Of a stretch of DNA of 64,000 nucleotides, positions 47,264 to 64,000 are shown one piece after another; position 1 is the stretch's first letter, and the number at the start of each line of letters is the position of its first letter. Under the pieces are notes generated by a model. That model searched no databases. It was not told the DNA's origin and worked only from the letters and a program-made list of their open reading frames with translations. The stretch covers positions 526,977 through 590,976 of the forward strand of contig JAOPTT010000006.1 in assembly GCA_051531975.1 (NCBI GenBank), given 5' to 3'. The stretch is from Spirochaetaceae bacterium (lineage in GTDB: Bacteria; Spirochaetota; Spirochaetia; DSM-2461). The position numbers were made by a program, and so were the translations under genes.

Positions 47264-47698
47264 TTATTTCAGTACTCCAAGCACTCTTTCTAAAACTTTT
47301 TTTCTATCTAATGGTTTAACAATATAATTTTTTGCACCAATCATTAGAGACTTTTTAACTAAATCTTGCTTACCTAGTGCACTAACCATTACAACTTTAG
47401 CATCTTTATCAAATTCAATAATCTTTTCTAATGCAGTAACCCCATCCATTTTAGGCATTGTTATATCCATAGTAACAATATCTACATTTGGATGTAGTTC
47501 TTTGTACATTTCTACACCTTCTTCACCATTTCCGGCGGCTCCAATTACCTCAAAACCTTCTGAATTTAATATCTGTGATATCTGTTTTCTTACAAAAACA
47601 GAATCATCAACTACTAAAACCTTATATGCTAAACCAGAATCACTTTGACCTTCTGGTTTTCTTTCATTAATTGAAGGCATATCACTATTAGTTTTCAT
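47264..47698 (-). CDS. cheY: Chemotaxis response regulator CheY with spirochaete-type N-terminal extension
   Basis: VVDDS, TMDITMP, VSA and VKP; follows cheX. Confidence 0.92.
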   Translation of the reverse strand: MKTNSDMPSINERKPEGQSDSGLAYKVLVVDDSVFVRKQISQILNSEGFEVIGAAGNGEEGVEMYKELHPNVDIVTMDITMPKMDGVTALEKIIEFDKDAKVVMVSALGKQDLVKKSLMIGAKNYIVKPLDRKKVLERVLGVLK

Positions 47699-47706
47699 AT
47701 ATACTC

Positions 47707-48171
47707 CTAGTTTCTCTCTCTAATTGCCACATTAATTTCAATTTTCCCAAGTGTTAATTCCATAGGAACAATTAAAGCTTCCACATCCATATCTGTTACT
47801 TGCATATTTTCACCAGTAATAATTGCAGGGGGAGTAAGGTCAAACTTAAAACCTAAATCATATAATTTAGTTACAGCTTGAGCTGTGATCATATTAGCTA
47901 ATTCAGTTATGGTTGCTTTTCCAAGATCATCTAAGCTTGGAAGAGTCTCTCCATTCATTGCAGATGCTAAATCAACAGCCGTCTGCATACTCATGTCAAA
48001 TAAAACTCGACCTTCAACATCTCCTGCTAAACCTACTATAGCAGCAACACCCATAACAGGTTGTGTTGTTCTTTTAAGAAATAATTCCCCTCTTTGTACT
48101 TCAGTACCAAGCACTTCTTTTAACACATTAAATGCTGCTTCAACAAACGGGTTAATATATTCTACTCTCAT
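47707..48171 (-). CDS. cheX: CheY-P phosphatase CheX
   Basis: YINPFVEA, GLAGDVEGRV, ELANMI (ExxN) and LTPP. Confidence 0.95.
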   Translation of the reverse strand: MRVEYINPFVEAAFNVLKEVLGTEVQRGELFLKRTTQPVMGVAAIVGLAGDVEGRVLFDMSMQTAVDLASAMNGETLPSLDDLGKATITELANMITAQAVTKLYDLGFKFDLTPPAIITGENMQVTDMDVEALIVPMELTLGKIEINVAIRERN

Positions 48172-48213
48172 GGACTACAATCTCCTTCTAATATCTTGTT
48201 ATATTGTTTAACA

Positions 48214-49524
48214 CTATTTTTTTATATAAACTCTAATGGATCCAGAACTACTTTCTGTCCAATCTCCAGAATTTGGTAGTTCCTCATTTTCTCCTAATAA
48301 TAAAACTCCACCAGGTTTCATTTTTTTAGCCACTATTGCAAAGAATTTCATCTGAACATCTTCTGGTAAAAATGATATTAAATCTCTAGCACATATAAAC
48401 TGATAGCCAGAGAAATGATCTGCATTATTAACATCGTGGTATTCAAATCTAATTGAATCTTTTATTTCATTATTAAAACTATAACCATTTATAGATTCAG
48501 AAACAAAATTCCTATATCTATCAGGGATATCGCTTTTACTAAAGTTTAATGCAGGTGCAGATGAAATGCTTAATAAATCTGAATCTCCTGCATGAATTTT
48601 AATTTGGGTACTACCATAATGTTCTTTTAACATACAAGCCAATGAATATGTTTCGTATCCTCTACCACAACCAGGATTCCAAATTTGCATAATACCAGAA
48701 GATACATTTGGTAACACCTTCTTTATTGCATCTATATAATCTGTTTTCCAGAACTGCCCAGTACAAGGAGAGAAAAATGGTAATAAAAATTCATTTGCAG
48801 AAGCTTCAGATTCAAGTTGAAAGTCTTTTCCTTCTGCATTTCTATACTGTTTCCAGATTTTACCTCTATCTTTTAACCACACCATATTCACTGGAGATAC
48901 ATTGAACTTTTTAAAAGTGCTTAACGTATCTTTAAAAAAGCTAATATCAATTGCTTCTTCTTTAGTAGATTTAAATTCTTCTTTAGCATTTAACTGACTT
49001 ATAGCTTCAATCTGTTTATCAACAGATTCTGGATTAGTAGAAAATATCTTCTCTACATCTAAAATAATGTAAAGTTTTTTATCATTTTCAACTACACCGT
49101 GGATATATTCAATATTAACATCGCCAAACAGAGGATGTGATGGCTGTATTCGAGAACTAGATACACCTACAACTCTATCAATACCATCAACGATTACACC
49201 TATAAGGTGGCCATATTCTAATTGTAATATGACCATGTTTTCAGATTCATTATCCTGCTTTTCTTCAATCTTAAGTCCAAAAAACAATCTTAAATCTATT
49301 ATTGAAATTATCTCTCCCCTAAGATTATATACACCACGAACAAAAGGTGCTGTATTTGGAACGAACGTAAATCTATCAGCTTTTGATATACTAGCAACAT
49401 TCATTATATTTATTCCATAATCTTTTCCAGCTAAAGTGAAAGTAACCATTTTATAATCAATGTTTACAGAGATATCTTTGTCTTCAACTGCTACATTCAT
49501 CTTCTCATCTTCCATTAATATCAA
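48214..49524 (-). CDS. cheW: CheW adaptor fused to a CheR-like methyltransferase domain
   Basis: N-terminal CheW (VPNTAPFVRGVYNLRGEIISIIDLR); C-terminal IWNPGCGRGYETYSLA, FEYHD, ICARDL and GGVLLLGENE. Exact start uncertain. Confidence 0.9.
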   Translation of the reverse strand: MILMEDEKMNVAVEDKDISVNIDYKMVTFTLAGKDYGINIMNVASISKADRFTFVPNTAPFVRGVYNLRGEIISIIDLRLFFGLKIEEKQDNESENMVILQLEYGHLIGVIVDGIDRVVGVSSSRIQPSHPLFGDVNIEYIHGVVENDKKLYIILDVEKIFSTNPESVDKQIEAISQLNAKEEFKSTKEEAIDISFFKDTLSTFKKFNVSPVNMVWLKDRGKIWKQYRNAEGKDFQLESEASANEFLLPFFSPCTGQFWKTDYIDAIKKVLPNVSSGIMQIWNPGCGRGYETYSLACMLKEHYGSTQIKIHAGDSDLLSISSAPALNFSKSDIPDRYRNFVSESINGYSFNNEIKDSIRFEYHDVNNADHFSGYQFICARDLISFLPEDVQMKFFAIVAKKMKPGGVLLLGENEELPNSGDWTESSSGSIRVYIKK

Positions 49525-51854
49525 CCTCTACCTAGTATGAGAGCATCTCTTTGTTGTCTCTCCGCTACTTCTTTTTTCATTCCTAATTCTAATAATTGAC
49601 TTACATCGATAATTAGAGAAACTGTTCCATCACCTAAGATTGTAGCGCCTGCAATGCCTGGAGAACTTGTATAATGGTCATTTAGAGGTTTAATTACAAC
49701 ATCTTCCTCACCTATTAGAGAATCAACCATCAGTCCCATTCTCTTCTCTCCACTACCTACAATTACAACAAACTTATATTCTGTACCACTATCATCTGGT
49801 AATCTAAATAGTCGATTTAAACGTAATAATGAAATTACATCTTCTCGAACATTAAATACTTCATAGTTATCAATAAATCTAATTTCATCAGGTTTAATTC
49901 TGTGACTTTCAGCAACAGAAGTTATAGGTATCGCAAAAATTTCTTTACCAACCCTTACTAATAAACCTTGTATAATCGCTAATGTTAGCGGTAGTTTAAT
50001 AGTAAATCTAGATCCTGTACCAAATTCTGACCATACACTTACAGAACCATTTAATTTTTCAATCTTCCTACGAACAACATCAAGTCCAACACCTCTACCA
50101 GAGATATCTGTTACAGATTTAGCTGTTGAAAATCCAGGTTCAAAAATTAAATTAAATGCTTCTAGATCAGTTAAATTTTTATTTTCGTGAATTATTCCAT
50201 TTTTTACAGCCTTAGCCATAACATTTTTTACGTCGATTCCTGCACCATCATCTGCAATTTCAATAACTATCATGTTACCTTCATTTTTGGCTTTTAAAAG
50301 TATATGCCCTTCTTCAGACTTACCATTAGCAGCTCGTTCAGATTTAGTTTCAACACCATGGTCAATTGAGTTTCTAACACAGTGCATAAGTGGATCTAAT
50401 AAATCCTCAATAACTGATTTATCTAGTTCTGTATCTTCACCTTCTATTATTAAAGTAATATTTTTATCAAGTTTTTTTGATAAATCTCTAACAAGTCTAG
50501 GGAATCTAGAGAACACTTGTCCAATTGGTACCATTCGCACACGTAGTACACTTTCATGTAAATCACCAGTAGTACGGCCAAGATTAGTAGCAGTACTTCT
50601 AAATAAGTTAACAGTACTTTTTAAATTATTTTCAAAATCATCAAAAACACCATTTAGTTTTAAGTACTCTTCTGTTAATGATTTTTTTACTTCTTTACTT
50701 GAAGTACCTTCCCTTTGAAATTTATCAAATAGTTCAGGTAAAACATCAAAGAAACGCTTTAATTGATCTTTATAAGTAGATTCACAATTCTGAAAGTTTG
50801 TTAGAGAATCAGCAAATTGATTACTTATTTGGTTAAAAGTTGCTTTAGTTATAACAGCCTCACTAACAAGATTTAAAATCTCATCAATTCTTCTACTATC
50901 AACTCTTAATATAGAACCTTGAGTTGCAACAGCTTTTTTACCTTTTTTTGTAGATACATCATCTAAAACTTCTTCTTTTGTTTCTAAAGGAACAGAAACT
51001 AATGGTGTCTCAATTTCTTTAGCTATCTCTTTTTCTTGAACTACAACAGCTGGTTCTGGCGTCTTTTTAACCTCAGTTGCCGCTGATAAAAGAGTTACAC
51101 TACTTTCTAAAGTTACATCGGATAGTTCAGATTTTCTCTTAATATCAGATATATTTTCATCTGATGATAAATAATATTTTACATCAGCTACAAAATTATC
51201 ATCATACAATACATCAAAATCTGGTACAGTTTTTAAAATTTCACCAACTGACTTTAATGCAGTAAAAACTTGTATTCCACCTACACTATTCATAGGGTTT
51301 TCAGGATCAAACTTTACATGAACAACATAGACATCTTTTCCATTAGCAGCTTCTTGAAGCTCTAAAACATCGTATTCACTTAGTTCTGAATCATTAATAC
51401 TATTTTCTACTGTTTCACTTTTTTTCATAATAGGTTCAGCCTTTTGTTTTGGACTATCTCCATTTTTAAATGAATGTAATGTTTTTTCTATAGAAGAAAT
51501 ATCTTCTTGATAAATGTTGCCTTCACTTCTAGCATCTAACATCAATTTAATGACGTCTAAAGAATTTAATAGGCTATCAACAACATTTCCAGTTATGGAT
51601 ATCTGACCGGCTCGTATATCGTCCAGTAGATCTTCAACAATATGGGTAAAAGACGCTAATTCAGCCATCTGTACCGTAGCAGCTCCACCTTTTAAGGTAT
51701 GTGCAGCTCTAAATATTTCATCTATAGAATCCTTATCCGTTGGATTATTTTCTATAGATAATATATTTTGCTCCAACTGCTCTACTTGCATTTGTGCTTC
51801 AATAAAAAAGTCTTTTAATAACTCTTCGTTATTTGGGTCTAAATAATCGCTCAT
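49521..51854 (-). CDS. cheA: Chemotaxis histidine kinase CheA
   Basis: HPt IFRAAHTLKG, a P2 domain, a dimerisation domain, HCVRNSIDHG, DDGAG, FEPGFST, SGRGVGLDVV and a C-terminal CheW domain. Confidence 0.97.
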   Translation of the reverse strand: MSDYLDPNNEELLKDFFIEAQMQVEQLEQNILSIENNPTDKDSIDEIFRAAHTLKGGAATVQMAELASFTHIVEDLLDDIRAGQISITGNVVDSLLNSLDVIKLMLDARSEGNIYQEDISSIEKTLHSFKNGDSPKQKAEPIMKKSETVENSINDSELSEYDVLELQEAANGKDVYVVHVKFDPENPMNSVGGIQVFTALKSVGEILKTVPDFDVLYDDNFVADVKYYLSSDENISDIKRKSELSDVTLESSVTLLSAATEVKKTPEPAVVVQEKEIAKEIETPLVSVPLETKEEVLDDVSTKKGKKAVATQGSILRVDSRRIDEILNLVSEAVITKATFNQISNQFADSLTNFQNCESTYKDQLKRFFDVLPELFDKFQREGTSSKEVKKSLTEEYLKLNGVFDDFENNLKSTVNLFRSTATNLGRTTGDLHESVLRVRMVPIGQVFSRFPRLVRDLSKKLDKNITLIIEGEDTELDKSVIEDLLDPLMHCVRNSIDHGVETKSERAANGKSEEGHILLKAKNEGNMIVIEIADDGAGIDVKNVMAKAVKNGIIHENKNLTDLEAFNLIFEPGFSTAKSVTDISGRGVGLDVVRRKIEKLNGSVSVWSEFGTGSRFTIKLPLTLAIIQGLLVRVGKEIFAIPITSVAESHRIKPDEIRFIDNYEVFNVREDVISLLRLNRLFRLPDDSGTEYKFVVIVGSGEKRMGLMVDSLIGEEDVVIKPLNDHYTSSPGIAGATILGDGTVSLIIDVSQLLELGMKKEVAERQQRDALILGRG

Positions 51855-58552: not shown

Positions 58553-60001
58553 ATGATTTTTAGAAATAAAGAAAAAATTGATGCTTCTCATATAAATATA
58601 ACATTAAAACCATTTTTAAATATTAAACCTCAAATTTATATTCCAATTATATATTCAGTTATTTTTGCTATAGTATTTTTTACTATAATTATTCTACCCG
58701 GAATATTAAAAAATGGTACAGAATTAAATATTACATCAACTCCAGGGAATGCTTCTGTTTATATTGATGATGTTAGGATTGGTTCAACACCATTAAAAGT
58801 GTTTGTAGAGAAAGGCAAAAAAACTATACTAATAAAGAAAGATAATTTTATTGATGTTTTAATAGATAAAAAAGTTCGTGGTAAGTTATTTTTCTCTCTA
58901 TTTAATAAAAAAAGGGAGGATATACATACAAATTTATTATCTAAAAATGGAAAACAAATATTAGAAAATGCATATTTAGAAATGTCACGGTGGAGTTTAA
59001 TTAATAATAAAGATGTAAAAAATAGATACAGGATACCTTCTTTATTGTCTTTAAGTGTTAAAGATTATTACAGATCAACTGATTTTGATAAAAAAACATT
59101 AGATAATTATCTATTATCTTCAATTAAATTAGTTACAAATGAGAACATCTTTAGCGATTATCTTAGAGCAATTATGATTTCTGAATCCGACTATAGACTT
59201 CCATCAATATCATCTATTAAAAATAGTATTATTTTTGTTAATAACATTGTTGAAGAGAATCCAAATACTCCTCTTCTATTATATAATGAGATTTTAAAAG
59301 ATATAAAATCTGATAATAAATATTACAAATTGTTAACTGATAGACACAGAAAAATTATAAATAAAAATGTAATCTCTTTTGAAGATCCAAAGGATGATGT
59401 AGATATAGGAAGTATGACTTTTAAATATATCCCAAATTCAAATATCACACCTTATGATGTTAATTTTATTCATAACATAACTGAGGAAAGTTTTTACATA
59501 TCTGAACTTATGGTCTCTAAGGAAAACTATCTAGATTTTGTATCAAAAAATCCAGAATGGAATACTGAAAATAAAGATTCCTTAGTTTCTGATAAATTAG
59601 TTGATAACTATTATCTTAGTTTTGAAAACAGTGAAGAGTATATAACAAATGTTTCTTATTTTGCTGCATTAGCTTGGTGTAAGTGGGCTAACTCATATTA
59701 TGAAATACCTGAGGGTTGGATTATTAATTTACCAACAGAAAACATGTGGTTTAGTGCAGTATTATACGGTATTAATCTTAATGTTGAGGCTTGGCAGTGG
59801 ACCGATCAAGGATTTTACCTTTATGATCATTTTTTAACTAATAATAATGGTGTACCTATTACTCCATTTACAGATATAACACCAAGACTTGTAGTTGGTG
59901 AAAATAAGTATAATACAAAAGCAGAATCAGGACGAGGTGTACAAGAAGCAAACTGGTGCACTCCATTTTTAAGTTTTAGACCAGTTCTGGTAAAGGAATA
60001 G
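58553..60001 (+). CDS. Membrane-anchored PEGA-domain protein with a C-terminal FGE-sulfatase-like domain
   Basis: TM helix; PEGA LNITSTPGNASVYIDDVRIGSTP; FYISELMVS...NVSYFAALAWCKW...LPTENMW...FRPV. Confidence 0.75.
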   Translation: MIFRNKEKIDASHINITLKPFLNIKPQIYIPIIYSVIFAIVFFTIIILPGILKNGTELNITSTPGNASVYIDDVRIGSTPLKVFVEKGKKTILIKKDNFIDVLIDKKVRGKLFFSLFNKKREDIHTNLLSKNGKQILENAYLEMSRWSLINNKDVKNRYRIPSLLSLSVKDYYRSTDFDKKTLDNYLLSSIKLVTNENIFSDYLRAIMISESDYRLPSISSIKNSIIFVNNIVEENPNTPLLLYNEILKDIKSDNKYYKLLTDRHRKIINKNVISFEDPKDDVDIGSMTFKYIPNSNITPYDVNFIHNITEESFYISELMVSKENYLDFVSKNPEWNTENKDSLVSDKLVDNYYLSFENSEEYITNVSYFAALAWCKWANSYYEIPEGWIINLPTENMWFSAVLYGINLNVEAWQWTDQGFYLYDHFLTNNNGVPITPFTDITPRLVVGENKYNTKAESGRGVQEANWCTPFLSFRPVLVKE

Positions 60002-60003
60002 TT

Positions 60004-60468
60004 ATGGCAAAAAAAAAGGAAGCTCCTGGTACGCTAGGAAAAAATAGAAAAGCATTTTTTAATTACAGTATCGAAGAGAGTCTTGAATGTGGAATAGAAT
60101 TAAAAGGGACAGAAGTTAAATCTTTAAGAGATCACCAATTTGCATTTGTAGATTGTTATTGTGAGATTAAAGATAATCAGCTTTGGCTTTATAAATTAAA
60201 TATTAATACTTATGGTTTTGGAAACATACATAACCATATAACAGATAGACCTAGAAGACTTCTTGTGCATTCTAAAGAGATAGATAAATTAGAAAGAAAA
60301 ACAAGGGAGAAAGGTTTTACTCTAATACCCTTAAAATTCTATTTAAAGGGTTCTTTAGTAAAAGTAGAAGTAGGTCTCTGTAAAGGTAAAAAACTCTATG
60401 ATAAAAGAGATACAATAAAGAATAGAGATATGGATAGAGATCAGAGTCGAAAAAGTAAATTCGATTAA
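60004..60468 (+). CDS. smpB: SsrA-binding protein
   Basis: NRKAFFNY, GIELKGTEVKSLR, RRLLVH and GKKLYDKR. Confidence 0.98.
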   Translation: MAKKKEAPGTLGKNRKAFFNYSIEESLECGIELKGTEVKSLRDHQFAFVDCYCEIKDNQLWLYKLNINTYGFGNIHNHITDRPRRLLVHSKEIDKLERKTREKGFTLIPLKFYLKGSLVKVEVGLCKGKKLYDKRDTIKNRDMDRDQSRKSKFD

Positions 60469-60580
60469 ATGAACTAATGAATATGCCTTTAAAATATTCA
60501 AATCCAGTACAACATTATATTTAATACTCAGCTATAACTATACTTTAAAGTTTAAAATAACCATTTTATTTTTGGCTTAT

Positions 60581-60618
60581 TTGCTATTACAACCATATCA
60601 TATTATCATTTAATATGA
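60581..60618 (+). promoter_or_regulatory. Promoter TTGCTA-17-TATCAT straddled by the palindrome TCATATTA-N5-TAATATGA
   Basis: -35 at 60581-60586, -10 at 60604-60609, palindrome at 60598-60618. Confidence 0.6.
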
Positions 60619-60627
60619 GGTAATTTA

Positions 60628-61008
60628 ATGAAAATTTTAGTTATTGATGATTCTACTGTAATGAGAAGAATACATATGAATTTATTAAAAGAGATTGGAT
60701 TTAACAAAAGTGATATTTTAGAAGCGGAAAATGGTGAAGTTGCACTTAAACTAAGTTTAGATAATGATATAAAACTATTTTTACTAGATTGGAATATGCC
60801 TAGACTAAATGGTTTGGATTTTACAAAAAATATTCGGTCTTTAGAAAAGTATAAAAAAATTCCAATTATAATGGTTACATCAGAGGCTGCAAAATATCAT
60901 GTAGTTGAGGCAATAAAAGCAGGTGTAACAAATTATGTAGTAAAACCGATAAAAAGTGATGTCTTAGTTGAAAAGATTAGTAAATATGTAAAAACTGGTA
61001 AAATGTAA
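60628..61008 (+). CDS. Single-domain CheY-like response regulator
   Basis: VIDDSTVMRRI, LLDWNMP, MVTSEA and YVVKP. Confidence 0.92.
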   Translation: MKILVIDDSTVMRRIHMNLLKEIGFNKSDILEAENGEVALKLSLDNDIKLFLLDWNMPRLNGLDFTKNIRSLEKYKKIPIIMVTSEAAKYHVVEAIKAGVTNYVVKPIKSDVLVEKISKYVKTGKM

Positions 61009-61469
61009 TGAAAGCAAAATTTATTAACCCCTTTATCAGTGCTGCAGAAAAATTATTTATTGAATTTTTAGAATTAGATGTAAAGATTGGAAACCCTTTT
61101 TTAATGGATGGTAAAAATGATCTATATGAAGTTTCTGCCATTATTGGTCTAGCTGGCGATACACAAGGTGCAGTAGTATTAAGTTTTCATTCAGATACTG
61201 CGATACAAATGATAACACTATTTGCACATCATGATTATAAATATCTAACAAACGAAGTTTTAGATGGTGTTGGAGAATTTGTAAATATAATTGTTGGAAA
61301 TGCTAAAAAAGATCTTGAAGATTACCGAATTTCAATATCATTACCAGGTGTAGTTACAGGGAAAGACTATAGAATAAAATGGCCTGATGGTGTTCCAATA
61401 ATAACAATTCCATTTCAATCTGAAATAGGTAATTTTACTTTAAATGTTTCTCTATTGGATGCTATATGA
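61008..61469 (+). CDS. cheX: Second CheX-family phosphatase
   Basis: FINPFISA, IIGLAGDTQGAV, GEFVNIIVG (ExxN) and ISLPGVV. Confidence 0.9.
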   Translation: MKAKFINPFISAAEKLFIEFLELDVKIGNPFLMDGKNDLYEVSAIIGLAGDTQGAVVLSFHSDTAIQMITLFAHHDYKYLTNEVLDGVGEFVNIIVGNAKKDLEDYRISISLPGVVTGKDYRIKWPDGVPIITIPFQSEIGNFTLNVSLLDAI

Positions 61470-63619
61470 AAATAAATTCTATTCAAATCAAAGTTGCTTC
61501 TTTAATAATTCTAATTTTAACAGTATCAATAACCTCTGTATTAATATTTACAACTCAAAATCATAAAAATGAACTTATAAAATCAACAGAGCGAACACTT
61601 TCAATAAATACGGGAATTTTAAATACGGTAATTAGAAATATAATGTTGAGTGGTGAAGCTCCAATTGCTACAAAAACTGTTCAAGATCTTAAAACCTTAC
61701 CATCCTTAACTGAAGTTTCTATATATAGAATTGATGGTACGACAGCTTTTAGTGATTATGAAACTATTGATAAGGTTAATAACTATCAGGATACTATTAT
61801 GTTTTCTAAAACTAATCGTATAGAAAATATGATGGCAAATAATTCAAATTTTAATGAAGTTTTAAAAAGTAGAACACCTAAACAAAATGAATTAATTGAA
61901 ACTCAAGAATTAGAGTATTATTTCCCTATTTTAAATTATAAAGAGTGTAGAACATGTCATGGTGATGAAGAATTCATTAGAGGAATTGTCCACTTTAAAA
62001 TTTCTCTTAAAGGTGTTTATAAGACAATAGCTACTTCTACTAAAATAACAACAATATTATTTATTGCAATTGGTATTCTTATTACTTTTTTACTATATAT
62101 ATCTTTAAAAAAAATAGTTTTAAAACCTATAAAAACAATATCTTATGTTGTAAATGAAGTAGGTTCTGGGAATTTAGAAGAGAGAGTTATATTAGATAAT
62201 AAAGATGAACTAGGAACCTTAGGGGCTTATATTAATAATATGATTGTAGGTCTTAAAGAAAGAAATTCTCTACTTATAACTAATCGTGTAATAGAAGCAA
62301 AAAACAGGGAAAATAAAAAATATCTTGATAATATTCAAGAAGGTTTAGTTCTTTTAGATAAAGAATTTAACATTACAGGAATATATTCACTTTATTTCAA
62401 AAAATTGTTTAAAATAGATAATCCTGAGGGTGTATCTATAGAAAAACTAATTTATTCTAATAATGGTTCAACTGAGTTTATTGAATTTCTAGATCTTATA
62501 ATGAATAGTTTACATGCTGATATGGATATGTTATTAGAAATTAATCCTATAGATAATACATCTGTAGTTTTATTTGATAAAAGTAAAATTATTATTGATG
62601 CTTATTTTGCTAGAGTTTTTAACGCAGATGATGAAGTCGAAAATATTATGGTAATTTTTAAAGACCGTACAAAAATAATTCAAGCTGAAGAAGAATTAAA
62701 AAAAGAGAAATTGAAAGGTCTAAGTGAGTTGGAGATAATTTCTTCAATGTTAAAATTAGGAAATAAGGACTTTGAGTCTCTAATTACTGATTTAAAATTA
62801 ATAATTGATAGTATGGAAACTTTTTATGAAAACAATTCTCCTGATAATAAAAATATACTTCTTAGAGACTTACATACCTTAAAAGGTATAGCAAACTACC
62901 TTGGATTCAGACAACTCTCAGAATTACTACATACATCGGAGACATCTATAGCTGATAATAATTCAGAGTTTATTAAGAAAACTTCATCTGAATTAAAATC
63001 AGAATATGAATTGATTGTGTCTATATATGAAAAATTTCAAAGTTTTATAGAAAACAGTGTTGATAAAGATCCATTAAAAAGATTCTTTAATATATTAACA
63101 ACAATGATCAATGAAACTTCAAAGAAGTTAGAGAAAGAAGTTAACTTTAAAATAGAAAGTAATATAGATGAATTCCCCTATCTAGAAGAATTAAAAGGTT
63201 CAATTATTCATTTACTAAGAAATGCAATTGATCATGGAATTGAAGATACATTTGAAAGAATAGAAAGGGGTAAATCTGGTATTGGGACTATTACTTTGAA
63301 ACTATTAGAAAATAAAAATAACTATTTAATAGATATTGAAGATGATGGTAATGGTCTTGATTTTAATCTAATACAAAAAAAAGCAATAGAGAAAGGTATA
63401 ACAAAAAGATTAGATTTGACTCATAATGAATTAACAACAATTCTATTTAAACCAGCCTTTAGTTCAAAAGAAAATATATCCGAAACATCAGGTCGAGGTT
63501 TTGGATTAGATGCTGTAAAAGACAGTGTATATAAATTAAAAGGCACTATAAATATTAAAAATAGAAACTTAAATGGAACTACATTTCAAATTAAATTGCC
63601 AAAGGGAGATAGCTTATGA
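61466..63619 (+). CDS. Membrane-anchored CheA-type histidine kinase: periplasmic CxxCH sensor, HAMP, PAS-like, HPt and HATPase domains, no CheW domain
   Basis: TM1; CRTCH at 61946-61960; TM2; HAMP (KPI...DELGTL); PAS-like LDNIQEGLVLLD; RDLHTLKG; HLLRNAIDHGIE; EDDGNG; FKPAFSS; SGRGFGLDAV; ends at FQIKLP. Confidence 0.88.
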   Translation: MKINSIQIKVASLIILILTVSITSVLIFTTQNHKNELIKSTERTLSINTGILNTVIRNIMLSGEAPIATKTVQDLKTLPSLTEVSIYRIDGTTAFSDYETIDKVNNYQDTIMFSKTNRIENMMANNSNFNEVLKSRTPKQNELIETQELEYYFPILNYKECRTCHGDEEFIRGIVHFKISLKGVYKTIATSTKITTILFIAIGILITFLLYISLKKIVLKPIKTISYVVNEVGSGNLEERVILDNKDELGTLGAYINNMIVGLKERNSLLITNRVIEAKNRENKKYLDNIQEGLVLLDKEFNITGIYSLYFKKLFKIDNPEGVSIEKLIYSNNGSTEFIEFLDLIMNSLHADMDMLLEINPIDNTSVVLFDKSKIIIDAYFARVFNADDEVENIMVIFKDRTKIIQAEEELKKEKLKGLSELEIISSMLKLGNKDFESLITDLKLIIDSMETFYENNSPDNKNILLRDLHTLKGIANYLGFRQLSELLHTSETSIADNNSEFIKKTSSELKSEYELIVSIYEKFQSFIENSVDKDPLKRFFNILTTMINETSKKLEKEVNFKIESNIDEFPYLEELKGSIIHLLRNAIDHGIEDTFERIERGKSGIGTITLKLLENKNNYLIDIEDDGNGLDFNLIQKKAIEKGITKRLDLTHNELTTILFKPAFSSKENISETSGRGFGLDAVKDSVYKLKGTINIKNRNLNGTTFQIKLPKGDSL

Positions 63620-64000
63620 AATTAATGATATTTATAACTTTATCATTTACATTATTATCCTGTTCAAATAAAAAAGAGGTTATTCTACCACCAATAAGTC
63701 AAGAAAATATATCTGGAACAGTATTGTGGAATCGTATAACAAATGAAACGGACTATAATACCTATTCGTATATGCCAGGACAAGAAGGTCTTAAAAATGG
63801 GCAGAGTCCTCATGGAGTTTTACATAAAATATTTGCAAATAAAATCCTTTTAGATGGTTTGCCTGCTAAAAGTGGCACTGTTCCATACGGTTCTATAATA
63901 GTAAAAGAAAACTATACATCAGATGAAGAATTAGATAAATTAACTGTTATGGTTAAAGTAAAAGATTATAATCCTGAAGCTGGAGACTGGTTCTGGGCAG
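63616..64000 (+). CDS. Cytochrome P460-family lipoprotein, truncated by the window end (absent from the ORF track)
   Basis: Manual translation: MKLMIFITLSFTLLSC (lipobox)...SPHGVLHKIFAN...PYGSIIVKENY...TVMVK...YNPEAGDWFWA. ATGA overlap with the kinase stop. The expected CxxCH would lie beyond 64000. Confidence 0.78.
   Translation, partial: MKLMIFITLSFTLLSCSNKKEVILPPISQENISGTVLWNRITNETDYNTYSYMPGQEGLKNGQSPHGVLHKIFANKILLDGLPAKSGTVPYGSIIVKENYTSDEELDKLTVMVKVKDYNPEAGDWFWA

Follow-up and report, generated by a model that had tools for sequence, protein, structure and literature searches.

CheA is held to be the sole histidine kinase that lacks a sensor of its own and needs receptors and CheW. A 2023 survey takes the Hpt, dimerisation, HATPase and CheW core domains to be common to all CheAs and describes CheA as being without a sensor domain (PMC10542144). 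Here, we describe an operon of a marine spirochaete in which a CheA-type core is wired to a transmembrane sensor. The operon begins in a stretch of 64,000 nucleotides (nt) from Spirochaetaceae bacterium (GCA_051531975.1, contig JAOPTT010000006.1, positions 526,977-590,976 of the forward strand), called the window below, and spans positions 60628-64113 on the plus strand. Its four genes encode CheY, CheX, a membrane kinase of 717 amino acids (aa) and a P460-family lipoprotein, and we refer to the four together as the cassette.

The closest described relatives of the kinase's sensor belong to two Geobacter methyl-accepting chemotaxis proteins (MCPs), GSU0582 and GSU0935 (PDB entries 3B47 and 3B42; Pfam entry PF21563). 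Their haem-c sensors bind nitric oxide (NO) whether oxidised or reduced, and CO in the reduced form, and Met60, the distal ligand in the reduced state, is displaced by both gases; with midpoint potentials of -156 and -251 mV, they have been proposed to be redox reporters that work through a Met60 on/off switch (PMC8396549). A 2026 preprint renames the family sCache_haem and finds that its signalling-fused members act as NO sensors, not as O2 or redox sensors (PMC12889525). Like the two MCPs, the kinase has a Cache/PAS-like domain between two transmembrane (TM) helices, with HAMP next and one CxxCH motif before the last strand, and it shares the distal Met on the N-terminal helix (kinase M60 corresponds to Met60). 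It differs from them in its output, an HPt and an ATPase in the same polypeptide in place of the MCP signalling domain through which the Geobacter proteins feed CheW and CheA, and in the strict pairing of its gene with a P460-family gene. The passages of the sCache_haem preprint drawn on here mention neither P460 nor Hpt nor Spirochaetota, and its domain-architecture supplements may list the architecture (PMC12889525); those of a companion preprint do not mention P460 either (10.64898/2026.05.25.727664).

The P460 and cytochrome c'-beta proteins are without a known role outside nitrifiers and methanotrophs, and a review describes intermediate forms as being 'of yet to be determined function'; the characterised members are ligand-binding or catalytic penta-coordinate haem proteins, not electron shuttles (PMC11928373). 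The cassette lipoprotein resembles the members of solved structure (2JE3, 6HIU, 6AMG, 6HIH, 7EAD and 7S5O) in its fold and its C-terminal CxxCH. With the true P460s it shares, at K97, the position of the cross-linking Lys, and the cross-link itself is predicted from this alignment. Unlike those soluble enzymes of nitrifiers and methanotrophs, it is a lipoprotein of a fermentative-type spirochaete; it has a His cap instead of Phe or Arg, a Thr at the carboxylate site, and is encoded as the partner of a sensor.

Co-encoding of a small sensory protein with a signalling enzyme has precedents of two kinds. H-NOX/HnoK and NosP/NahK are systems in which a stand-alone haem protein that binds NO is encoded beside the kinase or cyclase that it regulates, and is thought to exert its control on gas binding. 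The logic is similar to that proposed below, but those proteins are cytoplasmic, carry b-haem and have unrelated folds, whereas the cassette partners would carry c-haem in the periplasm and the kinase would have a haem of its own. In LuxP-LuxQ and TorT-TorS, a membrane kinase is encoded together with an accessory protein of the periplasm that acts on the part of the kinase exposed there; in contrast to the cassette, their partner is a solute-binding protein without haem and their kinase is of the HisKA type.

In the literature searched, with most subscription journals and preprint supplements outside the search, we found no description of a cassette made up of such a kinase, a P460 protein, CheY and CheX. 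Each part belongs to a known family, and the novelty lies in how the parts are wired together: a CheA-type core lacking the P3 and P5 domains, joined to its own haem-c sensor, served by a private CheY and CheX and tied to an obligate P460-family partner. The cassette and the parts of its kinase are laid out as follows, in window coordinates:

60628..61008, plus strand: CheY-type single-domain response regulator, 126 aa (Pfam Response_reg, E 7e-25)
61008..61469, plus strand: predicted CheX-type phosphatase of phosphorylated CheY (CheY-P), 153 aa (Pfam CheX PF13690, E 1e-22, 80.4 bits against a cut-off of 27)
61466..63619, plus strand: membrane sensor kinase, 717 aa, made up of TM1, haem-c Cache/PAS-like sensor, TM2, HAMP, PAS-like domain, HPt and CheA-type ATPase
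61556..62020, plus strand: periplasmic sensor domain of the kinase, residues ~31-185, of the GSU0582/sCache_haem type (profile against PDB)
61643..61645, plus strand: codon of Met60, candidate distal haem ligand, invariant and paired with Met60 of GSU0582
61946..61960, plus strand: CxxCH haem-c attachment motif, C161-R-T-C164-H165, present in 27/27 sensors and 37/37 kinases and aligned with CQSCH of 3B47
62114..62257, plus strand: HAMP, residues 217-264 (Pfam E 7e-9)
62339..62671, plus strand: cytoplasmic PAS-like domain, residues ~292-402 (Pfam PAS_9 at E 0.006, below the cut-off; an alpha/beta module in the AlphaFold2 (AF2) model)
62755..63055, plus strand: HPt helical bundle with putative phospho-accepting His470, codon 62873-62875 (Pfam Hpt, E 3.6e-6)
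63071..63601, plus strand: CheA-type (P4-like) ATP-binding domain, residues 536-712 (PDB and NCBIfam matches; HATPase_c, E 1e-13)
63616..64000 and a further 113 nt past the window, plus strand: predicted P460-family haem-c lipoprotein, 165 aa (Pfam PF16694, E 5e-11); the complete gene is at L005:3593-4090

Successive genes overlap at TAATG, ATGA and ATGA junctions, which we read directly from the sequence and which a first-pass annotation of this DNA had already reported.

Judged by its domains, the kinase is CheA-like and not a CheA, since two of the four core domains are missing: it has Hpt and P4 and lacks P3 and P5. Its Hpt domain scores 27.6-28.7 bits in Pfam against a cut-off of 24.6, and the motif R467-x-x-H470-x-x-K473-G474 is unchanged across 37 aligned kinases. 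The same 37 sequences keep H582, N586, D589-H590-G591, D626, G628, G630, S675-G676-R677-G678 and G680-L681 in the ATPase domain. When the ATPase was compared with the PDB, all 10 distinct sequences matched at E<=1e-5 were CheA, the best being Thermotoga maritima 1I58 at E 1.6e-40; these matches cover kinase residues ~531-712 alone, and the NCBIfam CheA models likewise match residues 535-712 (E 3.5e-46 and 4.9e-32). No match to CheW (PF01584), P2 or H-kinase_dim (PF02895) was found by Pfam in residues 279-717 even at E<=10. By the same test, the canonical CheA of the genome scores on all five CheA domains, with 49.7 bits for H-kinase_dim. The cassette kinase ends only 5 residues after its ATPase domain. 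The first-pass annotation had read a HAMP domain, a CheA-type HPt and HATPase and no CheW domain here, and the Pfam and PDB matches agree with it. The likeness to CheA (T. maritima 1I58/1B3Q; the genome's own CheA at window 49521-51854) thus consists of the HPt phospho-His, the P4 ATPase and the co-encoded CheY and CheX, and the differences are the lack of P2, P3 and P5/CheW and the possession of a transmembrane sensor, HAMP and PAS.

The AF2 model of the kinase (mean predicted local distance difference test, pLDDT, 79) suggests a long helix at residues 6-62, an alpha/beta domain at 65-180 and a second long helix at 182-279 that runs through the membrane into HAMP. These are followed by the PAS-like module at 293-400 (pLDDT ~85), the helical HPt bundle at 402-530 and the ATPase at 536-712. 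In the sequence, hydrophobic helices at residues ~10-30 and 185-208 flank the CxxCH motif, where the model places helices at 6-62 and 182-233. We found ~90 full-length homologues of the kinase, and all the source names given for them are spirochaetes; the kinase of Oceanispirochaeta isolates is 42% identical.

The sensor domain belongs with the Geobacter sensors, which the first-pass annotation had named and to which profile comparison shows it to be homologous. A profile of 27 homologues matches 3B47 (GSU0582) in the PDB at E 1.5e-7 and 3B42 (GSU0935) at E 0.008; the lone sensor sequence reaches 3B47 at E 1.5, so the homology becomes visible by profile. Across the 27 sensors, PF21563 (Mcp40H-20_sensor) matches 17 (best E 4.7e-7) and Tll0287-like matches 5, and on the kinase's own sequence PF21563 scores 17.6 bits, under its gathering cut-off of 27. 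The invariant residues of the sensors are N58, M60, L61, G63, G91, P154, C161, C164, H165, R172 and G173. In the HMMER alignment, M60 stands opposite M26 in the chain numbering of 3B47, equivalent to Met60 of GSU0582, the numbering offset being set by the haem His (chain 109 = His143). From the motif and Met60, covalent haem attachment together with Met switching and NO binding is predicted.

The CxxCH motifs of the cassette proteins are not there by chance, because the motif is rare genome-wide (21 of 5107 open reading frames, ORFs, of at least 100 aa hold any) and invariant in 27 sensors and 28 P460 homologues. c-type cytochromes are scarce in this genome: 19 ORFs have a single CxxCH, and a crude filter picks out a hydrophobic N-terminus in 5 of these. 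The five include the kinase, the P460 protein, a sensor-cyclase and a Tll0287-like hybrid kinase, the last confirmed by Pfam. The machinery for haem-c maturation, whose absence the first-pass annotation had named as fatal to its reading, is present, as ResB and CcsA are encoded together on contig C9 after an octahaem cytochrome and NQR/RNF-like genes. The octahaem cytochrome (448 aa, 8 CxxCH) lies between the NQR/RNF-like genes and ResB-CcsA (C9:421543-426680, L091) and is, if the sensors are set aside, among the very few c-type cytochrome candidates of the genome. The hybrid histidine kinase (C14:46316-48580, L092) combines a Tll0287-like domain (DUF3365, Pfam E 7e-18) with PAS, HisKA, HATPase and a receiver, and is a third haem-c sensor of the genome, from the other subfamily.

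The last gene of the cassette had been called a P460-type lipoprotein from the portion inside the window, and the whole protein passes Pfam, with the fold and the lipobox Cys16 in agreement: PF16694 (Cytochrome_P460) scores 43.5 bits on the whole protein and 20.6 bits on the in-window piece, against a cut-off of 27. Its AF2 model has a pLDDT of 84.5. Among the Foldseek matches listed for this model, the top 19 (ranks 1-25) all belong to the P460 and c'-beta cytochromes; E is 0.001 or lower for 14 matches, and target-normalised TM-scores reach 0.62. Lipobox Cys16, H66, H70, K97, T110, M112, K114 and C145-x-x-C148-H149 are invariant in 28 orthologues.

Judged by its residues in comparison with the characterised members, the lipoprotein is of a P460 type that has the Lys but lacks the residue on which hydroxylamine (NH2OH) oxidation by known P460s depends. 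K97 (28/28) falls in the alignments opposite Phe61 (6HIH and 7EAD) and Met79 (7S5O), positions that Table 2 of a 2025 review equates with the cross-linking Lys70 (Ne), Lys78 (Mc) and Lys106 (Ns) (PMC11928373). In spite of the Lys, the protein that the lipoprotein matches best in sequence is 7EAD (E 6.5e-9), a c'-beta. T110 (28/28) occupies the position of the proton-accepting carboxylate (Gly82 of 7EAD/c'-beta), so that the distal carboxylate is missing, and this carboxylate, Glu96 (Ne) or Asp102 (Mc), is needed for NH2OH oxidation (PMC11928373). Oxidation of NH2OH is doubtful because Thr110 replaces it. H66 is at the cap position, where known members have Phe32, Phe29, Arg46 or Arg50. The predicted pocket fits a ligand binder better than an enzyme, though His66 could serve as an alternative base. 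Longer P460-type proteins of ~290-380 aa (P0121-P0125, P0129, P0134, P0195 and P0236) outscore the single-domain forms in the profile search, and our guess is that they are tandem P460 domains.

In the cassette CheY, which consists of a receiver domain alone, we find DWNMP, T and K, positions that we take to be CheY hallmarks. Its top NCBIfam match is Escherichia coli CheY (E 2e-29), and the nearest solved structures are all CheY: 3H1G (Helicobacter pylori CheY1, E 1e-33), 4HNS and 2CHY (Vibrio cholerae and E. coli). Among the 60 PDB matches listed, the top 49 are CheY or CheY homologues. For the cassette CheX, all 8 PDB matches at E<=0.001 are CheX or CheC-like; they include 6VPW, 3HM4, 1SQU and 3HZH, and Borrelia CheX is among these relatives.

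A canonical che operon, which the first-pass annotation had placed at 47264-51854, does lie there on the minus strand, ~9 kb from the cassette, and encodes CheA (with Hpt, P2, dimerisation, HATPase and CheW domains), a CheW-CheR fusion, CheX and CheY. The cassette CheX is 27% identical to the CheX of this operon. The cassette CheY is 28% identical to its CheY and 48% identical to that of the first of two further cassettes in the same genome:

C6:503181-506017 (L082), minus strand: MASE6 cassette, with CheY of 125 aa, CheX of 156 aa and a kinase of 653 aa
C9:62951-67174 (L083), plus strand: ammonium-transporter (Amt) cassette, with CheY of 121 aa, CheX of 153 aa and a kinase of 933 aa

The MASE6 kinase has a multi-TM MASE6 input, Hpt, a CheA-type HATPase and no CheW, and its cassette recurs with CheY and CheX in a genome of the same genus (L012). 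The Amt kinase carries an N-terminal ammonium transporter (Pfam E 9e-115), Hpt and HATPase, and a 218-aa adenylate cyclase is encoded next to it. Open frames of ~920-930 aa in other genomes of the class match the PAS-HPt-ATPase part of the kinase, and their length fits the Amt form. The kinase search gave 17 CheA-type ATPase matches, and several further ones lie elsewhere in this genome. The genome therefore holds at least three CheY-CheX-HPt-kinase cassettes, with haem, MASE6 and ammonium-transporter inputs, and the haem kinase is one member of a family of sensor-fused CheA-like kinases. In the canonical operon, the CheW-CheR fusion (436 aa, window 48214-49524, minus strand) lies between CheA and CheX, with both domains at E ~1e-31 to 1e-34.

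The linkage of the four genes is conserved elsewhere, a point that the first-pass annotation had proposed to check and that we find from both ends of the cassette. From the kinase side, we took a census of 34 loci from species-representative genomes, 28 of which hold a kinase-type homologue. CheX is upstream of the kinase in 28/28; CheY is upstream in 27/28, the contig of the remaining one starting at CheX; and P460 is downstream in 26/28, the other 2 contigs ending inside the kinase. Wherever the contig reaches, in other words, the partners are in place in all 28 kinase loci. Kinase and P460 genes overlap by 4 nt in 16 of the 26 loci and in the window's own cassette. The same census includes three loci with a fusion of the sensor to an adenylate cyclase, and in 3/3 the gene immediately upstream encodes P460. 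With the queries used, no cassette partners were found at the three distant loci L048, L050 and L051.

From the P460 side, a profile search of 401 genomes of the class gave 61 hits in 52 genomes. Among the best 30 of these 61 loci, 28 have a kinase C-terminus directly upstream on the same strand; in one of the 28 (L063), the kinase's last 60 residues stand alone in an open frame. A sensor-domain profile search of the same 401 genomes gave 92 hits in 81 genomes, and 48 of the 61 P460 hits lie within 3 kb of a same-strand sensor hit. These 48 comprise 28 in the kinase arrangement, 17 in which a ~485-aa sensor-cyclase is followed by a divergent P460, and 3 in which P460 is followed by the sensor. 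Of the 13 unlinked hits, 3 are split from their partner by a contig end or frame break, with the kinase C-terminus still upstream. Both locus sets draw on the same species representatives and on related genomes and are not independent, so the counts are a measure of conservation without amounting to a statistical test.

The conserved unit is thus the sensor with P460, across kinase and cyclase outputs. That P460 also occurs beside cyclase-fused sensors speaks for a functional tie of P460 to the sensor domain. P460 is rarely found without the sensor and the sensor is sometimes found without P460, a pattern that fits an accessory partner. For the P460/c'-beta proteins, this pairing points to a signalling role and names a concrete partner.

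We also surveyed the flanks of the cassette loci, scanning 150 of the 201 flank ORFs (the remainder being the rest of L044, and L045-L047, L040, L043 and L049). The 150 include one MCP and no CheW, CheR or CheB. Genes for DOMON proteins occur near the cassette in 6 loci, namely the window's own, L025, L034, L044, L046 and L047; in the five other than the window's own they are within ~3 kb of the cassette, and in 4 of the 5 within 1 kb. A DOMON protein could be a third component of the system in the periplasm, if a loosely associated one. In 3 loci a PilZ gene is found just downstream of the cassette. An Hcp gene (Pfam Prismane) lies divergently beside the cassette at L042:3300-4928, and a YgbA_NO gene lies upstream near the cassette at L039:1885-2214. 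With an ORF at L053 described below, these two genes are an anecdotal nitrosative context, too few for a pattern. Beyond DOMON, PilZ and the scattered Hcp and YgbA_NO genes, no flank family recurs among the ORFs scanned. A lone P460 gene, at L053, adjoins a multi-TM sensor and an ORF (L053:2228-3502) read by eye as Hcp.

We infer a mechanism in which the P460 protein serves the kinase as a co-sensor in the periplasm, responding to NO or a related signal, and a dedicated CheY, reset by CheX, takes up the kinase's output, and we judge the chances of its being right and of its being wrong to be about equal. The periplasmic domain of the kinase would hold one c-haem through Cys161 and Cys164, with His165 as the proximal and Met60 as an exchangeable distal ligand, as in GSU0582 and GSU0935. 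The P460 lipoprotein, made together with the kinase by translational coupling, would act as an accessory co-sensor bound to or next to the sensor domain, and its pocket (Lys97, the His66 cap and no carboxylate) would be built for binding a small ligand and not for catalytic hydroxylamine oxidation. On binding of NO, or of a closely related N-oxide or redox signal, the haem ligation would alter, and the change would pass via TM2, HAMP and the cytoplasmic PAS to the CheA-type ATPase. The ATPase would phosphorylate His470 on the HPt bundle, from which the phosphoryl group would go to the cassette CheY; CheY-P would most likely act on the flagellar switch, and the cassette CheX would remove the phosphoryl group. 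No receptor array, CheW or methylation adaptation would take part. The first-pass annotation had likewise proposed a self-contained redox or nitrogen-oxide pathway; its components, linkage and sensor homology stand, and its mechanism, in which P460 would hand a ligand or an electron on to the kinase, keeps the conditional form given here.

The contact between P460 and the sensor, which the first-pass annotation had suggested modelling, is given weak support by a complex prediction. With 2 sensor domains, 3 haems and the mature P460 protein, the ipSAE was 0.47 (runs 0.48, 0.47 and 0.46) against 0.00 for three controls, the partner had a pLDDT of at least 90, and the runs shared at least 85% of contacts. 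In calibration, 116 of 157 solved complexes came up to the mark, as did 2 of 215 mismatched pairs, and those that did so at <=0.60 were 18 solved complexes and both mismatches; the calibration set had no ligands and was not made with the alignments used here, in which each protein had its own alignment. Given the genomic prior, the score may nudge the probability of a contact upward, and it is not evidence alone.

Several observations weigh against this mechanism. The complex score falls in a range graded 'more often wrong than right unless likely beforehand'. Two of the best 30 P460 genes (L053 and L078) lie apart from any kinase, L078 standing alone, and six intermediate-scoring P460-type hits are unlinked. 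From the other side, 43 of the 92 sensor hits go without a P460 hit at E<=1e-5; P460 is partly undercounted here, because in 2 of 3 hand-read 'P460-less' sensor-cyclase loci the gene directly downstream encodes a divergent P460 (Pfam E 1e-14 and 1e-9), while at L090, the third, no P460 partner was called. The genome's own sensor-cyclase paralogue (C8:72387-73784, L084), of 465 aa with a CAKCH motif and a sensor 29% identical to that of the kinase, has a PilJ-GGDEF gene downstream and no P460 neighbour, and one PF16694 gene was found in the genome. Trees of 24 sensor-P460 pairs agree in shallow clades without demonstrating co-duplication: the cyclase-linked sensors form one clade (85/86), and their P460s need 2 changes. 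With a few dozen neighbourhoods inspected, three nitrosative genes might turn up by chance. The P460 haem might be six-coordinate, with a His or Lys as its distal ligand. At 28% identity to the canonical CheY, the motor is not an assured target of the cassette CheY. Finally, the Geobacter homologues are usually read as redox-potential sensors (PMC8396549).

This last point leads to a rather unlikely alternative, in which the signal is redox poise: the haem would switch between an oxidised high-spin and a reduced Met-ligated low-spin form, with P460 as a redox mediator to a periplasmic or outer electron pool. The Geobacter potentials of -156/-251 mV and the proposed Met60 switch (PMC8396549) accord with it, as Met60 is invariant here; so do the strict co-encoding of a haem protein with the sensor, the scarcity of other c-type cytochromes, which makes a dedicated mediator sensible, and the DOMON proteins near the cassette in 6 loci, whose family includes b-haem electron carriers. 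It is opposed by the ligand-binding or catalytic character of the P460/c'-beta members (PMC11928373), by the behaviour of signalling-fused sCache_haem domains as NO sensors (PMC12889525) and by the lack of a recurrent reductase or oxidase partner among the flank ORFs scanned. We give little credence to a P460 protein that is a mere scavenger or protector, co-expressed to remove or buffer NO or NH2OH and so to end the signal in the periplasm, in a role like that of CheX, or guard the sensor haem, with no specific contact. Cytochromes c' do scavenge NO (10.64898/2026.05.25.727664), fast signal removal would be useful in a cassette without methylation adaptation, the complex prediction is weak, and some P460 genes are on their own (L078, and L053 beside its by-eye Hcp ORF). 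But the kinase and P460 genes keep their overlap and their order from locus to locus, different sensor lineages are accompanied by different P460 lineages, as one would expect of partners with a fixed stoichiometry more than of a general detoxifying protein, and T110 with no distal carboxylate makes NH2OH turnover like that of NeP460 or McP460 unlikely (PMC11928373).

Two further alternatives concern what happens in the cytoplasm. The same input could have a non-motility output, with the cassette CheY controlling, for example, cyclic-nucleotide or cyclic di-GMP (c-di-GMP) signalling or a protein partner, and with CheX setting its lifetime. We consider this somewhat improbable. The CheY belongs to a group of its own, nearer to that of another cassette (48%) than to the canonical one, the same sensor with P460 drives adenylate cyclases in paralogous systems, PilZ is just downstream in 3 loci and an adenylate cyclase follows the Amt cassette; on the other hand, the solved structures nearest to the cassette CheY are those of CheYs that bind the motor (H. 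pylori CheY1, then V. cholerae and E. coli), the cassette CheY is nothing more than a receiver and has DWNMP, T and K in place, and CheX is, to our knowledge, known solely as the CheY-P phosphatase of chemotaxis pathways. That the kinase is instead an ordinary chemotaxis kinase using receptor arrays encoded elsewhere, with the haem domain as an add-on, strikes us as extremely improbable: a canonical che operon is 9 kb away and the genome has several further CheA-type ATPase matches (17 matches in the search), yet the kinase has neither a dimerisation domain nor CheW (P5, the array-docking part) even at E<=10, it is a two-pass membrane protein with HAMP, and no MCP or CheW recurs beside the cassette, with one MCP among 150 flank ORFs.

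Should the co-sensor mechanism hold, the cassette would be a minimal and tractable chemotaxis-like pathway, with one kinase, one CheY and one phosphatase and with neither arrays nor methylation. Since periplasmic haem-c sensors were recently proposed to be NO sensors, a dedicated haem partner would change the view of their ligand specificity. A bolder extension, which we regard as unlikely, is that spirochaetes use CheA-like kinases, which have lost P3 and P5, are joined to membrane sensors (haem-c with P460, MASE6 or ammonium transporter) and have a private CheY and CheX, as an array-free second route to the flagellar switch. In the haem member, P460 would be an enzyme-coupled front end that binds or converts NH2OH or NO and presents the product to the kinase haem. 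If true, it would mean taxis to nitrogen-cycle intermediates in non-nitrifying organisms and the first signalling role of the P460 fold.

The cassette sits between smpB and the transfer-messenger RNA (tmRNA) gene ssrA, in a region of low G+C (0.23-0.32), and its surroundings are as follows:

60004-60468: smpB, the gene preceding the cassette, with a 159-bp gap between them
60469..60627, plus strand: smpB-cheY intergenic region of 159 bp, with a GAGG-type ribosome-binding site 8 nt before the ATG and a possible promoter
L005:4120-4632, minus strand: secreted DOMON protein, 170 aa, convergent (Pfam E 7.5e-31), 30 nt past the P460 stop
L005:4851-5234, plus strand: tmRNA gene (ssrA), downstream of the DOMON gene (ARAGORN; Rfam 148 bits)

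The first-pass annotation had given the operon its own promoter; a scan of the 159-bp gap found 4 weak sigma-70-like matches against 2.6 +/- 1.7 in shuffled sequences, no better than chance, and a promoter there is plausible. In the one RNA sequencing run from this sample, next to none of the sampled sequence words occur, a result without bearing on expression. On the downstream side, the operon is limited to four genes because the convergent DOMON gene, the tmRNA gene and an integrase island come next. The first-pass annotation had seen no MCP, CheW, CheR or CheB in the operon, and Pfam analysis of the ORFs past position 64000 still gives none, either in the portion of the operon beyond the window or directly downstream. 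An ordinary che cluster completed by downstream genes is ruled out, as the DOMON gene, tmRNA and integrase island were found in its place.

The tag peptide that ARAGORN assigns to the tmRNA looks atypical. The tmRNA gene is followed by a strong hairpin terminator and then by a tyrosine integrase (Pfam). The block of ORFs beyond the integrase includes one of 1080 aa, recognised by eye as a type I restriction enzyme, and this stretch (L005:5334-16000) looks like an island inserted at ssrA. On the other side of the cassette, directly upstream of smpB, a 482-aa protein with PEGA and FGE-sulfatase-like domains is encoded at window 58553-60001 on the plus strand.

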